The notes under the pieces: generated by a model
What the model was told of the DNA's origin: nothing
The model's input: the letters and a program-made list of their open reading frames with translations, nothing else
Databases searched by the model: none
Position numbers and translations under genes: made by a program
Assembly: GCA_964571525.1 (NCBI GenBank)
Contig: CAZNBY010000003.1
Location: forward strand, 40,308 to 104,307
Source of the DNA: an uncultured Planctomycetota bacterium
GTDB lineage: Bacteria > Planctomycetota > B143-G9
DNA: 64,000 nt
Direction of reading: 5' to 3'
Shown: one piece after another, positions 1 to 8,095 of the stretch
Numbering within the stretch: the stretch's first letter is position 1
Layout: every line of letters starts with the position of its first letter

Positions 1-796
1 AGCCGATACGGGTCTTCCAGTCGCGAAGCTCGGTGAAGGATGAGACGAGATCGGGCGATGTGATGATAAGGTAGTCAACATCGTTTGCATCAACTGGTGA
101 AAGCGGAGCCTTACCGTCAATCGGTGCTTCTAAAAGCGTCCTGCCAACTGGTGATAAATTCGGGAAAAACTCGGCCTGTGGATTAAGCGTTCTTGCTCTT
201 TCCTCGGCATAAAACGAGCTGAAATGCCTCTCCGGTGCAGTTGTGGGGTCTCCATCTATCTTGCAAGTAACCGTGATTGTCATTTCGGTCGCAATACGCA
301 ACACGCGCGATATTGGATTGTAAGCGAATTGGTGGGCGTAGAACGATACCTTCTTGATGCCGCGCCGCGTAGAAATCTCCGGTCTTCCGTGAAGTGCAGA
401 GGGATAGAAAGAGTCAATTCCGTAGATAGCGGCATCGGGTTGTGTGAACTCAAAAATCTCGTCACCCGCAACCGGTCTTTGCTTAGGACGAAGTGGGGCA
501 TCAAGCTGTATATCCGTATAGGTGGCAAGAATCTGAACCGTAGCTGCCGTGGTGCGAGTGTCAACTATAAACGACGCCAGCTTTGCGGGTAGCATTGGTG
601 CACCGACTGAGCCTGGGTAGAAGTAACCGGCTTCAACCGTGGGGGAGACGGTTGTATATCCATCGCGCACGGCGATTACATAGTCAGCCTTCGATATTGT
701 TATACGCGCAGATACGACGGACTCACCAAAGCCTGCCGTATAGCAGAATGCGCAGAACAACACCAAGACGAGCAAAATAAGATAGGGTCGTCTCAT
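1..796 (-). CDS. Secreted C25-type (gingipain-like) cysteine peptidase, N-terminal part; the window cuts the gene at its 3' side
   Basis: The reverse complement of 1..796 translates without a stop, starting at the ATG at 794-796 (MRRPYLILLVLVLFCAFCYTAGFGES...), so an N-terminal signal peptide is present. The end of the visible part reads ...DANDVDYLIITSPDLVSSFTELRDWKTRIG, which resembles the start of the catalytic domain of peptidase C25. The ORF track omits it because it runs off the window edge. Confidence 0.45.
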   Translation of the reverse strand, partial: MRRPYLILLVLVLFCAFCYTAGFGESVVSARITISKADYVIAVRDGYTTVSPTVEAGYFYPGSVGAPMLPAKLASFIVDTRTTAATVQILATYTDIQLDAPLRPKQRPVAGDEIFEFTQPDAAIYGIDSFYPSALHGRPEISTRRGIKKVSFYAHQFAYNPISRVLRIATEMTITVTCKIDGDPTTAPERHFSSFYAEERARTLNPQAEFFPNLSPVGRTLLEAPIDGKAPLSPVDANDVDYLIITSPDLVSSFTELRDWKTRIG

Positions 797-1070
797 CACA
801 AACGCTCCAGAATGATTGTGGGCATTCGATATTATAACAGCAATTTCAGAGTTACACTATTAACAATGAGACGCACAAATGGCACACTTGTTCGAAGCAG
901 AGTAGGGGGAGATGGCTTTTTCTGATGCTTATCTGCTCTGATGCCAATCTTGCCTTGCGCTTACAGTCATCAGGCAGGTTCTATTCAAGCAACAACCTGT
1001 AACAGGTCTGTACTATATAAGGTCACACGGATCTTATTAGCCTCTCGCACAACTTTGAAGCTTCTACAAG

Positions 1071-2384
1071 ATGCGTCTCACCCACTCTATATGGTTGGTG
1101 TTTATGCCGCATAACGCTTGTCTGACACATCGTTCTTGCCTTTTCGCATTGCTTCTATGTATGGTGTTCGCTTTTCAGTCGTTCGCATGGCCTGAGGAGT
1201 CAAAAAGGCTTAGCGATATTGAGGTCAATACATACAAGATTCCCTCTGTGGTTGGCGCATATAAAAAGCAGGGCAAGGAGGAGTTGAGAGAGATAGAGAT
1301 TGCCGACTTTTGGGTGCGAAGCGGCAGCAATCTGATTTTCACGCGAGGCGATTACGAGCAGACTGGCAAACTGCTCGTCTATTCCCTCAATACTCAGAAG
1401 AACGAGACAAGCTTGCTGCTCGAAATGACCGGTGTGCATGGTTATCTGCCCAACCGAAAGGGTTGGCTGTATATCTGTAGAGATGACGAAGAGGACGGCA
1501 GGATTATTGACAGGCGCGAGTATCGCGGTGGGTTTATCTGCAAAAGCTTCAGCTCGGTGTTGCCAAGTGACTCTCGCATAGTTAACTGGCATCGTGCCTC
1601 AAGCGAAAGTCGTTACGCCTGCCTTTACTCACCCGAGACGAAACAGCTTGGCATTTATGACATGGCGAAGCTGCTGCCGACCTATACGAAGATGCCAGAC
1701 AACATTGATATCCACATCGTTGACTCTTGCACCGATGACTATATCTACTTGCATGCGACAGAGTACGATAACGGAGCCGCATCGTACAAGCATCAGATGC
1801 TTATCAACGAGCAGGGGAAGTGGGTCGAAAGAGACTACAAGCACTACAACATGATGTTCGTCTTTCCCTACATCATCAAGTTCACACAAAGTGCAACCGA
1901 TACGGCGAGCCTTTCAGTGTCTGAAATTGGCAAGACGGAGGACAAGAACCTGACCGAGGCATCAATAAAACCGCCTTTCTTCGCCAAGGCGCTTCCCTCT
2001 GGCCTTATGCTTGTTTCGACAAACGGTCTTTCGCACAAGAAGGATGGTTTCACCTTAAAGGATAGGGACTTCGACTATTGGGTTCAGATGGCGAACGAGG
2101 AGTTTCCCCGTATGAAGGGAAACGCAAATGGTTTGCTGCTGGGTATAAGCCCCGAGGCGATTGTCTATCGCAGATCGAACGCGATCATTGTCAACACTCG
2201 CGAAGTTGCGCAGTTTAAGGGAAAGTTCGTATCCTTCGACTGGCTTGACAACACCCTGTTTATCGTATCAAAGGAGGATGAAGCTTACGAGCTAATCGTC
2301 ACAGAGATTAAGCTCCCTCACAAAATCCCATTCCTTCGCAACTCCATGCAAGGCTCTCATCCCCCCACCATTTGGTGCCAGTAG
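1071..2384 (+). CDS. Hypothetical secreted protein of 437 aa, no recognisable domain
   Basis: Long ORF whose N-terminus has a hydrophobic stretch (SCLFALLLCMVFAFQSFA) consistent with a signal peptide. It converges on the downstream operon, leaving only a 5-bp gap to the stop of the next gene. The start codon is uncertain. Confidence 0.5.
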   Translation: MRLTHSIWLVFMPHNACLTHRSCLFALLLCMVFAFQSFAWPEESKRLSDIEVNTYKIPSVVGAYKKQGKEELREIEIADFWVRSGSNLIFTRGDYEQTGKLLVYSLNTQKNETSLLLEMTGVHGYLPNRKGWLYICRDDEEDGRIIDRREYRGGFICKSFSSVLPSDSRIVNWHRASSESRYACLYSPETKQLGIYDMAKLLPTYTKMPDNIDIHIVDSCTDDYIYLHATEYDNGAASYKHQMLINEQGKWVERDYKHYNMMFVFPYIIKFTQSATDTASLSVSEIGKTEDKNLTEASIKPPFFAKALPSGLMLVSTNGLSHKKDGFTLKDRDFDYWVQMANEEFPRMKGNANGLLLGISPEAIVYRRSNAIIVNTREVAQFKGKFVSFDWLDNTLFIVSKEDEAYELIVTEIKLPHKIPFLRNSMQGSHPPTIWCQ

Positions 2385-2389
2385 GAGGA

Positions 2390-3652
2390 TTAGTCATTAA
2401 CCTCACCGTGTGGTGGTCTTGCTGCGAATATAATCAACTTTAGCTCTGTATCATCAATCAGTTCATAAATTGGCCTGATACCAGATAGTCTTTCGCTTTC
2501 AGTAATAATGATTGGCACACCCTCTCCGCGTTTGTCCATGATGAAGTTACGCCTGCAATCCTCGATTTGCGTTTTCAAAGGGCATCGCGCAAGCAATGAT
2601 GTCAACAGCTCATTTCTTGAAGACTGTCTTTCTGAAAGGCTGCTGATCGTCATTGTGTTAGGAATTGTGCCTGGTGAGAATATTTCGATGCGATCGGCGA
2701 ACATGTGTAATCTGATCTTCGATCCATATATCGAATAGTCTCTATGCGCAACCGCGTTTGTCACAGCCTCGAAGACTGCGTTCATGGAGTATTGCGGTAT
2801 TTCTCTCCTGTTTGGTGCCTTGATACCGAAGATGCGCATGTTCTTATTTACGAAGTCGCATGCCTTTGATATCTGAAAGTCCAACGGACCAGTTACTTCC
2901 TGTGCATCCAGTTGATATGACGCGTTCCGTTCAACACCACGATACGCGACTGCTTGAATGAAGGCGCTCTTAATGTATTCGTGAGGGGTTTTGCATGTCA
3001 TCAATATGCCGCTTACAGTCGGATAGATCTTTCCGTTTTCATCTCTTGTGACGAGACAAGCCTTTAATAGAAAATCCCGATCATCAACAGGCGACAACGG
3101 GGTTCTGAAGCGATTCCAAAGGTCATGTTCCATGCAATCGAGTGGTGCATTTGGAACAGATTGCTCATCAAATCTTATCAGGCGTACTTGGCTCCTTTGC
3201 TGGAACAATCTCGCAAGATAGTCTGGCGACATTTCACGCTTTGAGCTTCCTTGCCTGATGAAGTAACCATTTGGGCTTTTGTGCACAAACAGGCTTCTTG
3301 GTATCTCGATTTTGATTATTGACCTGAAAGTGCCTGTTGTATCGGGCAATTGCATTCGGAAAGTACGAAAGACTACCGGTGGCTTTATGCTGTCGCTGCA
3401 AACTTCGAAGACATACTTTTCTGCTGCTTCAAGGAGATCGGTTGGGATGCCCTCAATGTCGCGTGTCTTGTCGTTGACACCAAGCACGACGACAGCTTCG
3501 CATGTATTTGCGATCGCAGCGATTTCATCAGCAAGGTCACTCCTTGTCGGGTCTGACACGCTGTGGCCTTTGAAGCGTAACGATTTCAATTCGAGACTTG
3601 AATCCTCCCCGAGCCGAATTTTATCTAACAGATGTTCAGGGCTATCGAACAT
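2390..3652 (-). CDS. ATP-binding protein with a Schlafen-like AlbA_2 (divergent AAA) N-terminal domain and a C-terminal HATPase_c_4 domain, the family often annotated as a RecG-C-terminal-like transcriptional regulator
   Basis: The N-terminus (LELKSLRFKGHSVSDP...IAAIANTCEAVVVLGVND) has the architecture typical of AlbA_2/Schlafen divergent-AAA domains. The C-terminal region carries the motif AVTNAVAHRDYS characteristic of HATPase_c_4. Its start overlaps the stop of the upstream gene by 11 bp (3642-3652). Confidence 0.7.
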   Translation of the reverse strand: MFDSPEHLLDKIRLGEDSSLELKSLRFKGHSVSDPTRSDLADEIAAIANTCEAVVVLGVNDKTRDIEGIPTDLLEAAEKYVFEVCSDSIKPPVVFRTFRMQLPDTTGTFRSIIKIEIPRSLFVHKSPNGYFIRQGSSKREMSPDYLARLFQQRSQVRLIRFDEQSVPNAPLDCMEHDLWNRFRTPLSPVDDRDFLLKACLVTRDENGKIYPTVSGILMTCKTPHEYIKSAFIQAVAYRGVERNASYQLDAQEVTGPLDFQISKACDFVNKNMRIFGIKAPNRREIPQYSMNAVFEAVTNAVAHRDYSIYGSKIRLHMFADRIEIFSPGTIPNTMTISSLSERQSSRNELLTSLLARCPLKTQIEDCRRNFIMDKRGEGVPIIITESERLSGIRPIYELIDDTELKLIIFAARPPHGEVND

Positions 3653-6515
3653 TTCTGCCCTCCAGTGCTATGCGATCGTAACGCTGTTTGAAGGCTATCT
3701 CGCCCCCTTCCATGATGTCACATATTGTCTTGCGTACCTTTTCGACCTGAAGACAATCAGCAACACTCTGCTCAGTTTGACCTTGTTTTGCATCTAAGGC
3801 GACGACCAGTTCTGCATCGCCGTTAACAACGATATTTGCGTTGTGAGTTACGACAATAACTTGGCGATTAGGCTTTATACGGCGTAACTGCTCCACAATC
3901 AGATCATATATCAATCGGTTATCAAGATCATCTTCTGGTTGATCGAGAATCAAAGGTGAATCATCGTAAGAAAGAAAGAACGCGAGCAGCGTGGCAGTTT
4001 TCTGCCCTGGTGAACCGTCACTAATGGGGTTGTACTTACCATTAGATGAAAGGAAGCTGACTGCAATCGAGTCTTCTGGATACCAAAAAGCGAGCCTATC
4101 GAGCACTTCAGGTGACAACTTTGAAAGGTAGTTCGCAAAACGAAGGTCTTTCGCTGTTGTGTTTTGACCGTTCTTTGCATATTCCCTAATCGTGTCCTTG
4201 AACCTTTTTAGCTTCATTTCCATCTCGGTTCTGTCAGGATTGCCTTCATATAAATTATTAAAAAGACTATCAATATCCTTTGCGAATCTGTCCTGTTCCC
4301 TACCAATTAGTGTGCTGAAATTTCTCTCGCTCTCTTGTTTGTTGCCGAACAATTTGATTTCGATTCTAACAAATTTATTGTTTTTGCATATATCTTCAAC
4401 AGTTTTTCGCCTCATTTCTGTTAAATTATTGCGCATGTAGAAAATATTGCTTAGTATCTGCTCTGATTTGGCTTCAAGGTCTGCGATGATTATCTTGTTA
4501 GCTTCTTTCTCTTTTATCTGTTTTTCAATGGCCTGATGTTTCTGTATGAGAAATCCATATTCACTTGGATCTGATACGCCTTTTATCTTGAGTTGTTCTA
4601 TAAGGTTAAAGTGTGCGGTTTCTGTGTTCTTCACATTGCGTTGCCATTCGGATGCTAATCTGTCTTGCAGCCATTTTTCTGCTGCCGCTTCTGCACTTGA
4701 GGCGAGTTTGGATATGTTGAGGGATATCTCTTCAAAGACCTCTGCTGTTTTCTCTAAACGAGAAAGCAACTCACTTTCTTCTACTCGGCCAAGGTCGAAT
4801 GATGAACGGTCAAGTGTATCAGGCAATACTTCATTGCCTGTTTTTCTCAGTTTGCTGACAATGTCTGTTAGTCTGCTTTCCCATGACTCAAAAGCGCCTA
4901 CCTGTCTGCGACATCTTTGGTATTCCTTAAGCAGCTCTGAGTGTCCATGTTGCTCGAACACTTTAATCTTCTTCTGAATATCATCTAAATCACCCTTCAA
5001 ACGCGTGATTTCATCAATAGAAGCGGTGAGCTCGCGGATTTTTGCCCTTGTCGTTAAGTAGTTTCTCTCTGCAGCAACGCGTTCCTCCTCAAGTTCGCGA
5101 AAGCGTTGACTTGCTTCGTCAATCTTTTTAATCAGCGCCGATGGAACACCAGCGATCTGGAATATCTGCTTTTGGCTATATATGCTCGCGGGGAACCGTG
5201 AAGCAACATCTCCCTCACTCTTCTTCCATGTGCCATCGCTTTGCTCTTCCTCTATTGGATCCAGAGTGCCTTGCACATTCCATTGCACACGATATAGAAC
5301 TTGACCCTTTCGATAATAGACACGCACTACAGAATCGTTTCGCAAAAGCCCTGACTCATAGTCGTCTTTGGAACGCCTGTATTTAAGGAAGTCGCTTTTC
5401 ATTTCCTCTGGAAGCTCGTCCAACTCATTATCTCTGCGCAAGGCAACGCGAATAAGCTCTACAATTGTTGACTTGCCTGTCCCTCGTCCCCCAATAATCG
5501 CGTTCATACACGGATTGAAACTCAGCACAAAGGCCTTGTTGTTGCCTATATATTGTGCCCTTTCGATCTCGATTCGCTCGATATATGCTCCAGTATGATG
5601 GTTAAGATCGGAATCAGTTGAAACCTCGTCAAAACGCTTAACTGACATTTCTCCATCAAGAAGCGCTAACCTTAATCCTTCAATGCATGGAGTTCCCATC
5701 TTGACCCATGTGTAGTGGCTCCCTGGGTAGTTGCTGTGCTGCGATGAATCGGGATGATGCGAGTCTGAGCCAATTACAATCGTAGGTTTCTTGTTGGCTT
5801 CATAGAAAATCTTAGGGATATCCTTTTTGCGGTCAACTACTTCCATCGCATACAGCTTATCTTGTATGTTACTTGCGTCAGGACCTTTCATGCTGAACAA
5901 GCCAGCGTCTTTGTCAGAGTGCGCGGGAATAGGAATGCCGCCCGCTTTTTCAATCTCCCGAATCACTTCAATCATTGTCTTGGTCGTTGCATGCTCGCAA
6001 TACCCATTCTGCCCTTTATAACCAACTGCTCCAATCAGCTTGTTAATATCGCTTGTAGTGGTCTTTTGCCCAAATATAGCAAGTAGGTGTATGCCGCCCG
6101 ATACACTTATTTCGATACCGGGGAATAGGTATAGCTCGCGGTAGTCCTTGGGCTGCTCTGCTTTTAGCTTGCTGAGGGCTTGTTTCAGTATGTCTATGTG
6201 ATCGCCCGAGTTATGATCTGTTACTGCGACGCAGTCAATTTCAGCCTTCATGAAGCCAAGGAGCCAGTCTTTTGCAGTAATTTGCTTACTCGAAGTTTGG
6301 TGCGTTCCTTTTCCGTAATCACAAGAACTTGGTGTATGAGCATGGAAGTCGAACTTCCACCAACGAGCACCAACCCAGTTTATCTTGCTCATCTTATCCC
6401 CTTGCTTATAGGTCTGAACTGCGATTATATGGGCGTACTGTATCAGCGATTCGTCACCTATGTCAATAAACGCAGTTGTTGAGCGTATTGTGCTCCCTTG
6501 TGAATCAGGTACCAC
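3642..6515 (-). CDS. Fusion protein: N-terminal PHP-family phosphoesterase joined to a Rad50/SbcC/SMC-like ABC ATPase with a long coiled-coil insert (957 aa)
   Basis: PHP motifs are present: FDFHAHTPSS (HxH), VAVTDHNS, GIEIS, IPAHSD. Walker A is IIGGRGTGKSTIV. About 400 residues rich in heptad-like K/E/L/R sequence follow (coiled coil). The C-terminus carries an ABC signature-like SPGQKTATLLAF, Walker B LILDQPEDDLD, and an H-loop VIVVTHNANIV. Confidence 0.8.
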   Translation of the reverse strand: MVPDSQGSTIRSTTAFIDIGDESLIQYAHIIAVQTYKQGDKMSKINWVGARWWKFDFHAHTPSSCDYGKGTHQTSSKQITAKDWLLGFMKAEIDCVAVTDHNSGDHIDILKQALSKLKAEQPKDYRELYLFPGIEISVSGGIHLLAIFGQKTTTSDINKLIGAVGYKGQNGYCEHATTKTMIEVIREIEKAGGIPIPAHSDKDAGLFSMKGPDASNIQDKLYAMEVVDRKKDIPKIFYEANKKPTIVIGSDSHHPDSSQHSNYPGSHYTWVKMGTPCIEGLRLALLDGEMSVKRFDEVSTDSDLNHHTGAYIERIEIERAQYIGNNKAFVLSFNPCMNAIIGGRGTGKSTIVELIRVALRRDNELDELPEEMKSDFLKYRRSKDDYESGLLRNDSVVRVYYRKGQVLYRVQWNVQGTLDPIEEEQSDGTWKKSEGDVASRFPASIYSQKQIFQIAGVPSALIKKIDEASQRFRELEEERVAAERNYLTTRAKIRELTASIDEITRLKGDLDDIQKKIKVFEQHGHSELLKEYQRCRRQVGAFESWESRLTDIVSKLRKTGNEVLPDTLDRSSFDLGRVEESELLSRLEKTAEVFEEISLNISKLASSAEAAAEKWLQDRLASEWQRNVKNTETAHFNLIEQLKIKGVSDPSEYGFLIQKHQAIEKQIKEKEANKIIIADLEAKSEQILSNIFYMRNNLTEMRRKTVEDICKNNKFVRIEIKLFGNKQESERNFSTLIGREQDRFAKDIDSLFNNLYEGNPDRTEMEMKLKRFKDTIREYAKNGQNTTAKDLRFANYLSKLSPEVLDRLAFWYPEDSIAVSFLSSNGKYNPISDGSPGQKTATLLAFFLSYDDSPLILDQPEDDLDNRLIYDLIVEQLRRIKPNRQVIVVTHNANIVVNGDAELVVALDAKQGQTEQSVADCLQVEKVRKTICDIMEGGEIAFKQRYDRIALEGRNVR

Positions 6516-6695
6516 TCAGCAAATCTGGAACATGCAAACAGATGCACAATTACTTGCTGTTGATACGCAAACGAGGGTTGAATCTCCGAGCTTCATGTAC
6601 ACCAATGCTATACTACTCAGTATACCGAAAAATGCAACTTGATTGATGTTCGCTCTGTCGCGTTTTGAAACCGTGGCAATATCGCTTTTGCCCCG

Positions 6696-6728
6696 TAAAA
6701 ACGAAAAGGGCTGCATTGCTGCAGCCCT
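6696..6728 (-). terminator. Intrinsic terminator following the tRNA-Val/tRNA-Asp pair
   Basis: Perfect 9-bp inverted repeat agggctgca/tgcagccct (6707-6715 and 6720-6728) with loop ttgc. On the minus-strand transcript a T-rich tract follows (reverse complement of ccccgtaaaaacgaaaa). Confidence 0.55.
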
Positions 6729-6737
6729 GTATTTATC

Positions 6738-6814
6738 TGGCGAGGATGACGGGATTCGAACCCGCGACCTTCGGATCGACAGTCCGATGCTCTATCCAAT
6801 TGAGCTACATCCCC
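6738..6814 (-). tRNA. tRNA-Asp, anticodon GTC
   Basis: The reverse complement folds as a cloverleaf. Acceptor stem is GGGGATG/CATCCTC, discriminator G, and CCA is encoded. Anticodon stem TCGGA/TCCGA carries loop CTGTCGA. The T-loop is TTCGAAT. Confidence 0.85.
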
Positions 6815-6826
6815 GCAATTTGTAAA

Positions 6827-6903
6827 TGGTGGGCGATACCGGACTCGAACCAGTGACCCCTTGCTTGTAAGGCAAGTGCTCTAGCCGACTGAGCTAATCG
6901 CCC
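6827..6903 (-). tRNA. tRNA-Val, anticodon TAC
   Basis: Reverse complement is GGGCGATTAGCTCAGTCGGCTAGAGCACTTGCCTTACAAGCAAGGGGTCACTGGTTCGAGTCCGGTATCGCCCACCA. Acceptor stem is GGGCGAT/ATCGCCC and the anticodon loop is CTTACAA. Confidence 0.85.
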
Positions 6904-6976
6904 TTAACTCCTAAAATTCTACCCGTCTATAACGATTTGTCAAACCGTTTTTGCCAAAGTCAGCGCCGCGTTGTAG

Positions 6977-8095
6977 TTACAGATTGTAGTCGTCATCGTC
7001 GTCTGGCGGTGCGTCGAGGTTTAGTTTGCTGCGCATCTTCGCAGGTGACGCAATACGCCATGCTTCCGCAATTAGTGCCATCATTGCGGGTGGTTTTATG
7101 CCGATTTTTCCGCTTTCAGCCATTAACGCGGCAAGGTAGTCAAGGCCGGCATCTACTTTGCCAAGCTCGAAGCTGAGGCTCGTTGCCTGCGCAAGCGAGT
7201 TCATTAGCATAGGTATCTCGTTCAAATCGCGCGCCCGTTCGATGACTGTGTTAATAACCTCTATCGCCTTATCGGTTTGCCCGCTGTTTGCAAGCTGGGT
7301 GGAAAGCTGATCGAGCGACGAAAGGTGCGAGGGCAGGGCACCGATGTTTGCGAATAGCTGCCCAGCGGTCTTTGTTTGGGAAATTGCAGTATCGTCATCA
7401 CCTGCGTACTCAACGCAGCGACCATAGACGAGCCTGACATGCGCCTCATCCCACTTCCATCCCCTCTGATTCGCGATTGATACTGCTTTTACAAAATGCT
7501 GTTCTGCATCATCAAGGTCGCCGAAATGCGAAAGCTGTTCGGCGGCAAGCGCGATTGTCAACGGATCGTCGCACTGGTTCGCACATGAATTTGCTACTGT
7601 GAGCAGCAGATCCTCTGCACGCTCTGTCTCAACTACAAGCCCAAGGTTTCGCGCAGCAATTACAAGACCCTCGCACGCGGCAAGCTTAAGATGAGAAGGA
7701 GGCTCTGATTTTAGGGTGCGATATGCATGCGTGAAGTATGTTAACGCGGCTTCATCTTGTTGCATAATCTGAAGCAACTCGCCGCGCTTCAAATTCAGTT
7801 TGGTCTTCAGATCCGGTGGAACATCGTCGGGCGTTTCGAAACCCATTAAAGTGTTAAGCGCGTCAGAGTGCTTTCCTCCTGCCTGACTGATATCCGCGTG
7901 CAGAAGTATATACTCGATCTTGAGATCCGATGAGTTGGTCTCTATTTCGTTCGCGCAAGATTTGGCTTCAGCGAATCGCCCCATTCGAAGCAGTGCAGTG
8001 GCTCGCGCCCAACATCCAGAAAATGACTTTTCCTGAATGTTTGCAAGATCGGCAAACTGCCCTTTGTGAAGCATGTCGTCATACCGTTCTCTCAT
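6977..8095 (-). CDS. Hypothetical helical, TPR-like protein of 372 aa
   Basis: ORF overlapping the ScpA stop by 17 bp, so it lies in the same operon. Sequence is helical and repeat-like with an acidic C-terminal tail (DAPPDDDDDYNL). It shows no similarity to ScpB. Confidence 0.55.
   Translation of the reverse strand: MRERYDDMLHKGQFADLANIQEKSFSGCWARATALLRMGRFAEAKSCANEIETNSSDLKIEYILLHADISQAGGKHSDALNTLMGFETPDDVPPDLKTKLNLKRGELLQIMQQDEAALTYFTHAYRTLKSEPPSHLKLAACEGLVIAARNLGLVVETERAEDLLLTVANSCANQCDDPLTIALAAEQLSHFGDLDDAEQHFVKAVSIANQRGWKWDEAHVRLVYGRCVEYAGDDDTAISQTKTAGQLFANIGALPSHLSSLDQLSTQLANSGQTDKAIEVINTVIERARDLNEIPMLMNSLAQATSLSFELGKVDAGLDYLAALMAESGKIGIKPPAMMALIAEAWRIASPAKMRSKLNLDAPPDDDDDYNL

Follow-up and report, generated by a model that had tools for sequence, protein, structure and literature searches.

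In a 64,000-nucleotide stretch of the genome of an uncultured Planctomycetota bacterium (lineage B143-G9; assembly GCA_964571525.1, contig CAZNBY010000003.1, positions 40,308 to 104,307, hereafter the window) we have identified two overlapping genes on the minus strand, the first coding for an ATPase with a PHP phosphoesterase domain that belongs to the Ppl/TrlF defence family and the second (2390–3652), directly downstream, for a 420-residue protein combining a Schlafen nuclease domain with a GHKL ATP-binding domain, an architecture recently named 'Schlatpase'. The pair very probably constitutes a conserved functional module of two genes, and a role in defence against phages or mobile DNA is probable. 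On balance, we favour the view that it represents an anti-phage cassette of two genes that was acquired beside tRNA-Asp, with Ppl probably serving as sensor and DNase and the coupled Schlatpase as RNase effector.

The minus-strand open reading frame at 2390–3652 is a real gene with an ATG start. Its product contains SLFN_AlbA_2 (PF04326) at residues 16–142 (E 1.6e-14, 54.9 bits versus a cutoff of 25.3) and HATPase_c_4 (PF13749, GHKL) at residues 310–404 (E 4.7e-18, 65.4 bits versus a cutoff of 26), both above the curated Pfam cutoffs, as an earlier model-made reading of the same DNA (the sequence-only reading) had proposed. Each domain was also found in 40/40 of the Ppl-linked partners described below, which range down to 28% identity. 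Apart from these two domains Pfam shows nothing in the window protein or in the 40 partners, neither a helix-turn-helix (HTH) or winged HTH (wHTH) nor a helicase core, and the 420-residue protein stops 16 residues past the GHKL match. Because an HTH is absent, the labels 'HTH transcriptional regulator' and 'RecG' are inapplicable, and the annotation as a transcriptional regulator or RecG-like protein mentioned in the sequence-only reading has to be dropped for a protein that ends right after its GHKL domain. A search with NCBIfam profiles assigned no family to it, and the PADLOC profile of SLFN-pAgo aligns with residues 40–398 (8.5e-14). By its domains, motifs and predicted fold, the protein belongs to the 'Schlatpase' supradomain, a name introduced in 2026 for SLFN-pAgo, where it is an ATP-gated tRNase (10.64898/2026.05.29.728809). 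The Schlatpase of the Runella zeae SLFN-pAgo, which corresponds to the 'pSlfn-HisKinase' of Taboada et al. (10.1101/2025.07.24.666596), likewise combines these two Pfam domains, arranged in this order; this Slfn-HisKinase class makes up 34% of prokaryotic Schlafens and is the commonest stand-alone pSlfn architecture (10.1101/2025.07.24.666596). ATP-driven oligomerisation and tRNA cleavage, known among Schlatpases solely for RzAgo (10.64898/2026.05.29.728809), are predicted here.

The residues expected of an active enzyme are present in both halves of the protein. The window motif E16-DSSL-E21-L-K23 satisfies the Schlafen nuclease motif E(x)4(D/E)xK as defined in three recent studies (10.64898/2026.05.29.728809, 10.1101/2025.07.24.666596, PMC13462974), which is catalytic in SLFN11, RzAgo, Cash and pSlfn5. 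In the C-terminal half the GHKL N-box reads FE295AVTN299AVAHRDY, the counterpart of E295/N299 being E314/N318 of RzAgo, ligands of Mg-ATP (10.64898/2026.05.29.728809). Across the 40 Ppl-linked partners E16, K23, N49, E295, N299 and the motifs HRDY, SPG and RGxG are invariant, as are, residue by residue around the N-box, A300, H303, R304, D305 and Y306; at least 90% of the partners have E21 and D61. At the presumed position of the SAFAN 'Schlafen box' the window protein has AAIAN (45–49), with N49 invariant, A48 kept in at least 90% and the S and F not kept. Of the remarks made in the sequence-only reading, the one that Schlafen domains can act as nucleases fits best with this conservation of E16-x4-E21-x-K23 and of N-box E295/N299 in 40 partners. 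The AlphaFold2 model has a mean pLDDT (predicted local distance difference test) of 73, exceeding 90 at residues 20–130. Its top Foldseek match is 3LMM, an AlbA_2-HATPase_c_4 protein matched over the full length (E 5e-16), followed by the nuclease domains of mammalian SLFN13/14/5/11/12 and the SAMD9 tRNase (E 1e-6 to 1e-3) and then by the GHKL domains of histidine kinases and PDK (HK853, PDK2; E 6e-3 to 4e-2); the Schlafen C-lobe fold and the Bergerat fold are both recovered, the latter from the GHKL half, where model confidence is moderate. 3LMM (DIP2311 of Corynebacterium diphtheriae, an uncharacterised protein from structural genomics) is also the only solved structure detectable by sequence from the window protein (E 1.2e-4, 17% identity), and differs from it in being 583 residues long, with an extra C-terminal region.

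The upstream gene was called mechanically as 3642–6515, with a GTG start at 6515. Homologues align with this product only from residue 47, and an ATG preceded by an AAGGGG Shine-Dalgarno sequence is found at 6392; therefore the gene most likely extends over 3642–6392 and codes for 916 residues. Its product matches the Ppl profile of PADLOC end to end (3.3e-135, positions 3–892 of 894) and, with 612.9 bits, exceeds the cutoff of 350 for NCBIfam NF045780, 'TrlF family AAA-like ATPase'; with 552 bits it falls short of the 1000 required by the equivalog model NF042955, 'anti-phage protein Ppl'. By these scores it is a member of the Ppl/TrlF defence family, though neither an equivalog nor closely orthologous to the Ppl of E. 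coli; where the name 'TrlF' comes from could not be traced in the literature. Besides the full-length profile match, it shares with E. coli Ppl the PHP HxH/DxH residues, Walker A and B, the signature and the H-loop. In 43 Ppl sequences PHP residues D15, H17, H19, E94 and H102 and the Walker A, Q-loop, signature, Walker B and H-loop motifs are invariant and at least 90% have PHP residues D210 and H212, and the catalytic residues are retained equally in paired and solo forms. E. coli Ppl is a single-gene system, a 3'-5' exonuclease of single-stranded DNA (ssDNA) that needs 3'-OH overhangs (PMC12904381); nucleoside triphosphates (NTPs) hold it off and 3'-OH ends trigger it (PMC12904381 and, citing Xu et al., Mol Cell 2026, PMC13434339). 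Unlike the single-gene Ppl of PADLOC and of the literature, the window Ppl carries a conserved overlapping second gene.

With an overlap of 11 nucleotides and a GGAGGG Shine-Dalgarno sequence ahead of its start (Table 1), the Schlatpase of the window is, as predicted from the junction, translationally coupled to Ppl, and the sequence-only reading was right that the gene does not stand alone here, overlapping and being coupled to the PHP-ATPase. Purine-rich boxes like this one are present at most related junctions. The closest homologues of the 420-residue protein (P0001, P0003 and P0004; 67–69% identity) are all preceded by a Ppl-like gene of about 924 residues with an overlap of 8 nucleotides, the Ppl proteins next to them being merely ~50% identical to that of the window, and the pair is present in the closest metagenomic loci (L001, L002, L003, L009 and L010). 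When the window Ppl was compared with one genome per species we recovered 52 loci at 30–47% identity, 44 of which were evaluable (complete Ppl and enough downstream DNA). A Schlatpase homologue (46–58% identity) lies immediately 3' and on the same strand in 37 of these 44 loci (84%, a proportion that, the scan having been seeded with peptides of the window Ppl, overestimates pairing across the whole Ppl family). The 37 pairs span at least 12 phyla, with representatives, going by record titles, in the Acidobacteriota, Myxococcota, Planctomycetota, Rhodothermales, Flavobacteriaceae, Thermodesulfobacteriota, Magnetococcales, Verrucomicrobiota, Spirochaetota, Gemmatimonadota, Chloroflexota, Actinomycetota, Latescibacterota and Gamma- and Betaproteobacteria. 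The junction itself is an identical 8-nucleotide overlap, cATGTTTGA, in 26 of the 37 (reading ..H-V-stop for Ppl and M-F-D.. for the Schlatpase), an 11-nucleotide overlap in two, and ranges from -1 to +12 nucleotides in the others. The overlap found in the window is this same junction with TGA changed to CGA, by which Ppl reads one extra codon.

The pair is found as well on plasmids, in Burkholderia thailandensis (55% identity) and on those of the Pseudomonas syringae group and Yersinia ruckeri, where the partner is 27–31% identical and still overlaps a 'TrlF family' gene. These plasmids and the 37 of 44 loci show the wide co-occurrence in other genomes for which the sequence-only reading had suggested a check. 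On viral contigs we found a single, divergent pair, in the predicted viral IMG/VR contig L109 (IMGVR_UViG_3300009430_000108, 1799–5562), where an 863-residue TrlF-like gene overlaps by 22 nucleotides a 397-residue Schlafen gene ~40% identical to the Yersinia plasmid partner; a scan of viral contigs with the Schlatpase as query returned nothing. Phage GenBank records contained no pair. What they yielded were remote, incomplete Ppl-like matches, either 29% identical with coverage of 51% or less or confined to C-terminal fragments, together with remote Schlatpases (26% identity) in phages of Gordonia and Mycobacterium. The order and strand of the two genes are strictly fixed, an alternative partner was seen in 0/37 pairs, and all-against-all clustering of 764 neighbouring open reading frames revealed no third conserved component, the two families being the only conserved ones. 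An apparent 'family 2' among the neighbours was rejected, as it consisted of long antisense open reading frames inside the Schlatpase genes of GC-rich loci, an artefact of the greedy caller. The pairwise divergences of Ppl and Schlatpase correlate (r=0.81 over 38 pairs), a value reached by 0/2000 Mantel permutations. Since the pair and its junction are conserved, no third family accompanies them and the two proteins co-diverge, Ppl-Schlatpase is, by these comparative measures, a conserved operon of two genes whose adjacency is not due to chance.

Two observations on gene content at related loci may be added. In L062 (4199–5272) and L047 (2687–3301) a second, divergent Schlatpase paralogue, 25–28% identical, is found upstream of Ppl on the opposite, minus strand. 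Small serine 'recombinase family protein' genes flank TrlF/Ppl on plasmids of Klebsiella, Pseudomonas and Yersinia (L089, L090 and L092), in line with the description of serine recombinases as markers of defence loci (PMC12632615).

Several points weigh against reading the pair as one defence machine, in addition to the seeding of the genome scan already mentioned. Ppl has no partner in 7 of the 44 evaluable loci, scattered over the Ppl tree, and is alone on many conjugative plasmids of Klebsiella and E. coli, solo forms dominating on plasmids; it is also alone on most viral contigs. Conversely, among Schlatpases 55–64% identical to the window protein a Ppl gene was nearby in 0/26 metagenomic loci. 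Because each gene occurs alone in other lineages, the partnership is, on this distribution, dispensable or facultative at the level of the family. No other defence genes (BREX, restriction-modification or CRISPR) are found beside the cassette in the window, the GHKL part of the AlphaFold2 model reaches a pLDDT of only 40–75 (modest confidence), and any physical link between Ppl and Schlatpase is putative. Finally, a Schlatpase assembly that depends on ATP and a Ppl inhibited by NTPs pull in opposite directions. The solo occurrence of both genes had been missed in the sequence-only reading, which did not recognise the partner as Ppl either; its domain assignment and its coupling of the two genes stand.

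These solo forms fit the main rival explanation, in which two autonomous defence genes travel together, the operon reflecting co-transfer and co-expression, and provide layered or synergistic immunity with no physical coupling. It is in keeping with the many genomes that have one gene alone, with the description of E. coli Ppl as a single-gene system (PMC12904381) and with the Slfn-HisKinase class being the commonest stand-alone architecture. The BREX-like loci of some relatives (with N6_N4 methylase, SNF2 helicase and PglZ) point the same way, as the slot that follows the methylase and precedes SNF2/PglZ holds Ppl plus Schlatpase in L016, L017 and L001, Ppl only in L048, and Schlatpase only in L086, L063 and L066, and looks like a variable position for accessory effectors. 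However, defence genes that simply lie near one another do not as a rule keep a start/stop overlap, and here the same overlapping junction recurs across at least 12 phyla and an overlap persists down to 28–30% partner identity, with fixed order and strand, correlated divergence and no other partner in 37 pairs. Autonomy of the two genes fits the solo forms and leaves the conserved overlap and the co-divergence unexplained, and we regard it as unlikely.

One large clade of solo Schlatpases (metagenomic and genomic loci L004–L008 and L063–L083), 60–64% identical to the window protein, is unusually conserved, with a mean column identity of 78% across Desulfobacterota, Kiritimatiellia, Synergistaceae and SAR324, in neighbourhoods that are unrelated to one another and never include Ppl. 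In neighbour-joining distance trees, rooted with the divergent plasmid pairs and of moderate support, 80% bootstrap supports the monophyly of this clade and 79% its sister relationship with the window clade, and it is nested within the Ppl-linked proteins (85% with L056 included). Because of this nesting, the trees suggest that the solo Schlatpases descend from a paired ancestor. As an observation apart, two Schlatpase paralogues flank a SWIM-zinc-finger protein in L077, and a SWIM protein is also found downstream of the solo Schlatpases of L068 and L085.

If the pair does work as one system, Ppl and Schlatpase would be made in fixed proportion and act jointly. Following what is known from E. 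coli, Ppl would detect infection via 3'-OH ssDNA ends and falling NTP levels and would degrade phage DNA. The Schlatpase would act on RNA as the effector nuclease, in all likelihood as a tRNase, reaching its active form through ATP-driven GHKL oligomerisation, by analogy with SLFN-pAgo, Cash and pSlfn5; the RzAgo Schlatpase needs ATP-driven tetramerisation to form a working tRNase (10.64898/2026.05.29.728809), and bacterial Schlafens cause abortive infection through tRNA cleavage (PMC13462974, 10.64898/2026.05.29.728809 and 10.1101/2025.07.24.666596 among the sources on Schlafen tRNases). Ppl may license or release the Schlatpase, much as in PARIS a tRNase is held by an ABC ATPase, and translation arrest would then back up DNA degradation. 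Direct control of the Schlatpase by Ppl, through a coupling mechanism that we infer, is a tentative proposal. A wider one, which we find rather doubtful, is that Ppl would be the infection sensor, acting in trans, that has been missing for one branch of the Slfn-HisKinase or 'Schlatpase' Schlafens, both proteins forming one immune complex of a 3'-5' exonuclease sensing DNA ends and NTPs and an ATP-gated tRNase; the paired form would be ancestral, and the solo E. coli Ppl and the solo Schlatpase clade would be derived from it by partner loss, since solo Schlatpases are nested in Ppl-linked diversity (79–85% neighbour-joining bootstrap) and solo Ppl proteins are scattered in their tree. A separate observation concerns phage Bas63 gp130, a counter-defence against solo Ppl, which is a Ro60-like protein (PMC11482910). 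Ro60 binds tRNA-like Y RNAs, an RNA connection for the DNA-targeting Ppl that is curious given that the partner in the window is a predicted tRNase.

That the Schlatpase is an active RNase effector, and not a DNA-binding adaptor, seems to us somewhat the better supposition. The converse, a non-catalytic protein binding nucleic acids that would target or gate Ppl on particular structures of DNA or RNA, or act as a transcriptional regulator of the operon, draws on the nucleic acid binding of Alba-fold and Schlafen domains (weak Foldseek matches to Alba proteins were also obtained), on the annotation of relatives as 'predicted HTH transcriptional regulator' or 'RNA-binding domain-containing protein', and on the fact that some mammalian Schlafens are without catalysis (PMC13462974). 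It is nevertheless improbable in the light of the invariant E16, K23, E295 and N299, with E21 in at least 90% of the 40 partners; moreover, Pfam detects no HTH or other DNA-binding domain after GHKL, the gene is downstream of Ppl and co-translated with it instead of divergent, and in the relative L009 an XRE-type HTH is encoded by a gene of its own, upstream of Ppl. Positive evidence for the DNA-binding specificity subunit imagined in the sequence-only reading was not found, and that idea is not supported. Most improbable is that the Schlatpase cuts or nicks phage nucleic acid to provide 3'-OH ends for the Ppl exonuclease, taking the place of the homing endonucleases by which phages trigger solo E. 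coli Ppl. In its favour are the need of Ppl for 3'-OH overhangs (PMC12904381, and the title of Xu et al.), the intact active site of the partner, predicted to be that of a metal-dependent endonuclease, and the binding of ssDNA by some Schlafens (according to the introduction of PMC13462974); against it, all prokaryotic Schlafens characterised to date cleave tRNA, not DNA.

The proposed cassette of sensor and RNase effector can be placed among known systems. With the SLFN-pAgo Schlatpase the window protein shares E(x)4(D/E)xK and the E..N residues of GHKL that bind Mg-ATP, and its AAIAN may be a counterpart of SAFAN, but it is not fused to an Argonaute, NACHT or restriction-modification subunit, its partner Ppl/TrlF being encoded in trans. 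The BREX accessory RNases made of Schlafen, 'minimal histidine kinase' and wHTH (PMC12839542) have the same Schlafen plus GHKL core, and the window protein differs in having no wHTH. Clusters of Schlafen-ATPases have been linked to BREX, restriction-modification and type I CRISPR (PMC13462974), and in contrast to the BREX-linked ones the constant neighbour of the window Schlatpase is Ppl. The combination of an ABC/SMC-like ATPase with a separate nuclease effector is reminiscent of PARIS (AriA ABC ATPase and AriB TOPRIM tRNase) and, more loosely, of Septu (PtuA/PtuB) and Gabija (GajA/GajB), and the Ppl ATPase region matches the PADLOC profiles of AriA, PtuA and GajA (1.9e-11 to 1e-5; AriA 1.9e-11 over residues 723–895). 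As in PARIS, the predicted effector is of the tRNase class; unlike in these three systems, it is a Schlafen plus GHKL protein instead of TOPRIM or HNH, and the ATPase protein has a PHP nuclease of its own. Membership of PARIS was rejected, given that the AriA match is confined to the C-terminal ATPase part and that no AriB/TOPRIM (DUF4435) match was found with PADLOC, leaving an analogy of mechanism only.

The cassette (2390–6392) begins ~350 bp downstream of a tRNA-Val/tRNA-Asp pair that has its own near-consensus promoter-like site (TTGACA-16-TAGAAT, in the region 6707–6943, minus strand), and past these tRNAs come housekeeping genes coding for a TPR protein, ScpA and a prepilin peptidase. 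Its GC content, 0.446, is that of the lowest 4-kb stretch of the window (mean 0.482, standard deviation 0.014). The flanking tRNA genes and this low GC lead us to read the locus as a tRNA hotspot at which a minimal defence cassette was acquired horizontally; neither a direct repeat of the tRNA-Asp 3' end, nor any direct repeat of at least 14 nucleotides in 1–7000, nor an integrase was found. Some relatives' cassettes adjoin Type ISP or Eco57I-like restriction-modification genes and others lie in the BREX-like loci described above, surroundings that speak for a role in defence. The coordinates of all these features are collected in Table 1.

Table 1. Features of the Ppl-Schlatpase locus, in window coordinates.
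Feature	Position	Strand	Description	Basis
Schlatpase gene	2390..3652	(-)	N-terminal Schlafen/AlbA_2 nuclease domain and GHKL (HATPase_c_4) ATP-binding domain, without HTH	Pfam, AlphaFold2, Foldseek
GHKL/Bergerat N-box (FEAVTNAVAHRDY)	2756..2770	(-)	codons E295..N299	translation; conservation in 40 Ppl-linked partners
Schlafen nuclease motif E-x4-E-x-K (GEDSSLELK)	3584..3607	(-)	codons E16..K23	translation; conservation in 40 Ppl-linked partners
Ppl/Schlatpase overlap, 11 nt	3642..3652	(-)	Ppl TAG 3644-3642, Schlatpase ATG 3652-3650	
Shine-Dalgarno of Schlatpase, GGAGGG	3658..3663	(-)	within Ppl coding sequence, 5 nt upstream of ATG	
Ppl/TrlF gene	3642..6392	(-)	916 aa from ATG 6392; N-terminal PHP phosphoesterase (FDFHAH..GSDSHH) and ABC/SMC-like ATPase with coiled-coil insert	
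Ppl ATPase motifs	within 3642..6392	(-)	Walker A GGRGTGKS, signature SPGQK, Walker B LILDQPEDD, H-loop THN	
Promoter-like site upstream of Ppl	6437..6466	(-)	TTGACA-18-TACAGT (with TG)	consensus match only
Terminator-like hairpin of tRNA pair	6707-6728	(-)	9-bp, GC-rich	
tRNA-Val(TAC) and tRNA-Asp(GTC) genes	6738..6903	(-)	directly upstream of cassette; likely insertion hotspot bounding it	

On the other side of the cassette, a convergent open reading frame on the plus strand (1071–2384; 437 residues, or 407 as called in public assemblies) ends 5 nucleotides from the Schlatpase stop. Its product has a hydrophobic N-terminus, no match in Pfam, NCBIfam or PADLOC, and a sole match among 5.8 billion proteins, namely itself. 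As an orphan with no homologue outside the organism and no counterpart beside the pair in related loci it was rejected as a component of the system, and it is possibly part of the acquired segment. Further out, the plus-strand open reading frame 224–592 (122 residues) is probably spurious, assemblies of the same organism calling on the opposite strand an 1841-residue Peptidase_C25/PKD surface protein, whose gene continues beyond the window start.

Both components belong to known defence families, and together they seem to be a variant, with two enzymes and so far undescribed, of an established defence against phages. The Ppl-Schlafen pairing is absent from PADLOC, in which Ppl is a single-gene model, and unmentioned in three Schlafen papers (10.64898/2026.05.29.728809, PMC13462974 and 10.1101/2025.07.24.666596) that list associations with pAgo, BREX, restriction-modification, CRISPR and NACHT; nor was it reported anywhere in the literature searched, a coverage that leaves out the primary Ppl paper (Xu et al., Mol Cell 2026;86:180; PubMed 41344330). 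The mechanism of Ppl, sensing of 3'-OH ends together with NTP depletion, was worked out on the solo E. coli protein, and among the environmental relatives recovered here the usual form is a pair, predicted to be translationally coupled, with a Schlafen-GHKL nuclease. If the pair is one machine, defence-finder tools under-annotate such loci, and these would offer a natural system to learn how the commonest bacterial Schlafen architecture, which has no fused sensor, is switched on. It would also be another case of a DNA-targeting first line with a translation-arresting back-up, comparable to PARIS and the BREX accessory effectors and with parallels to human SLFN11.

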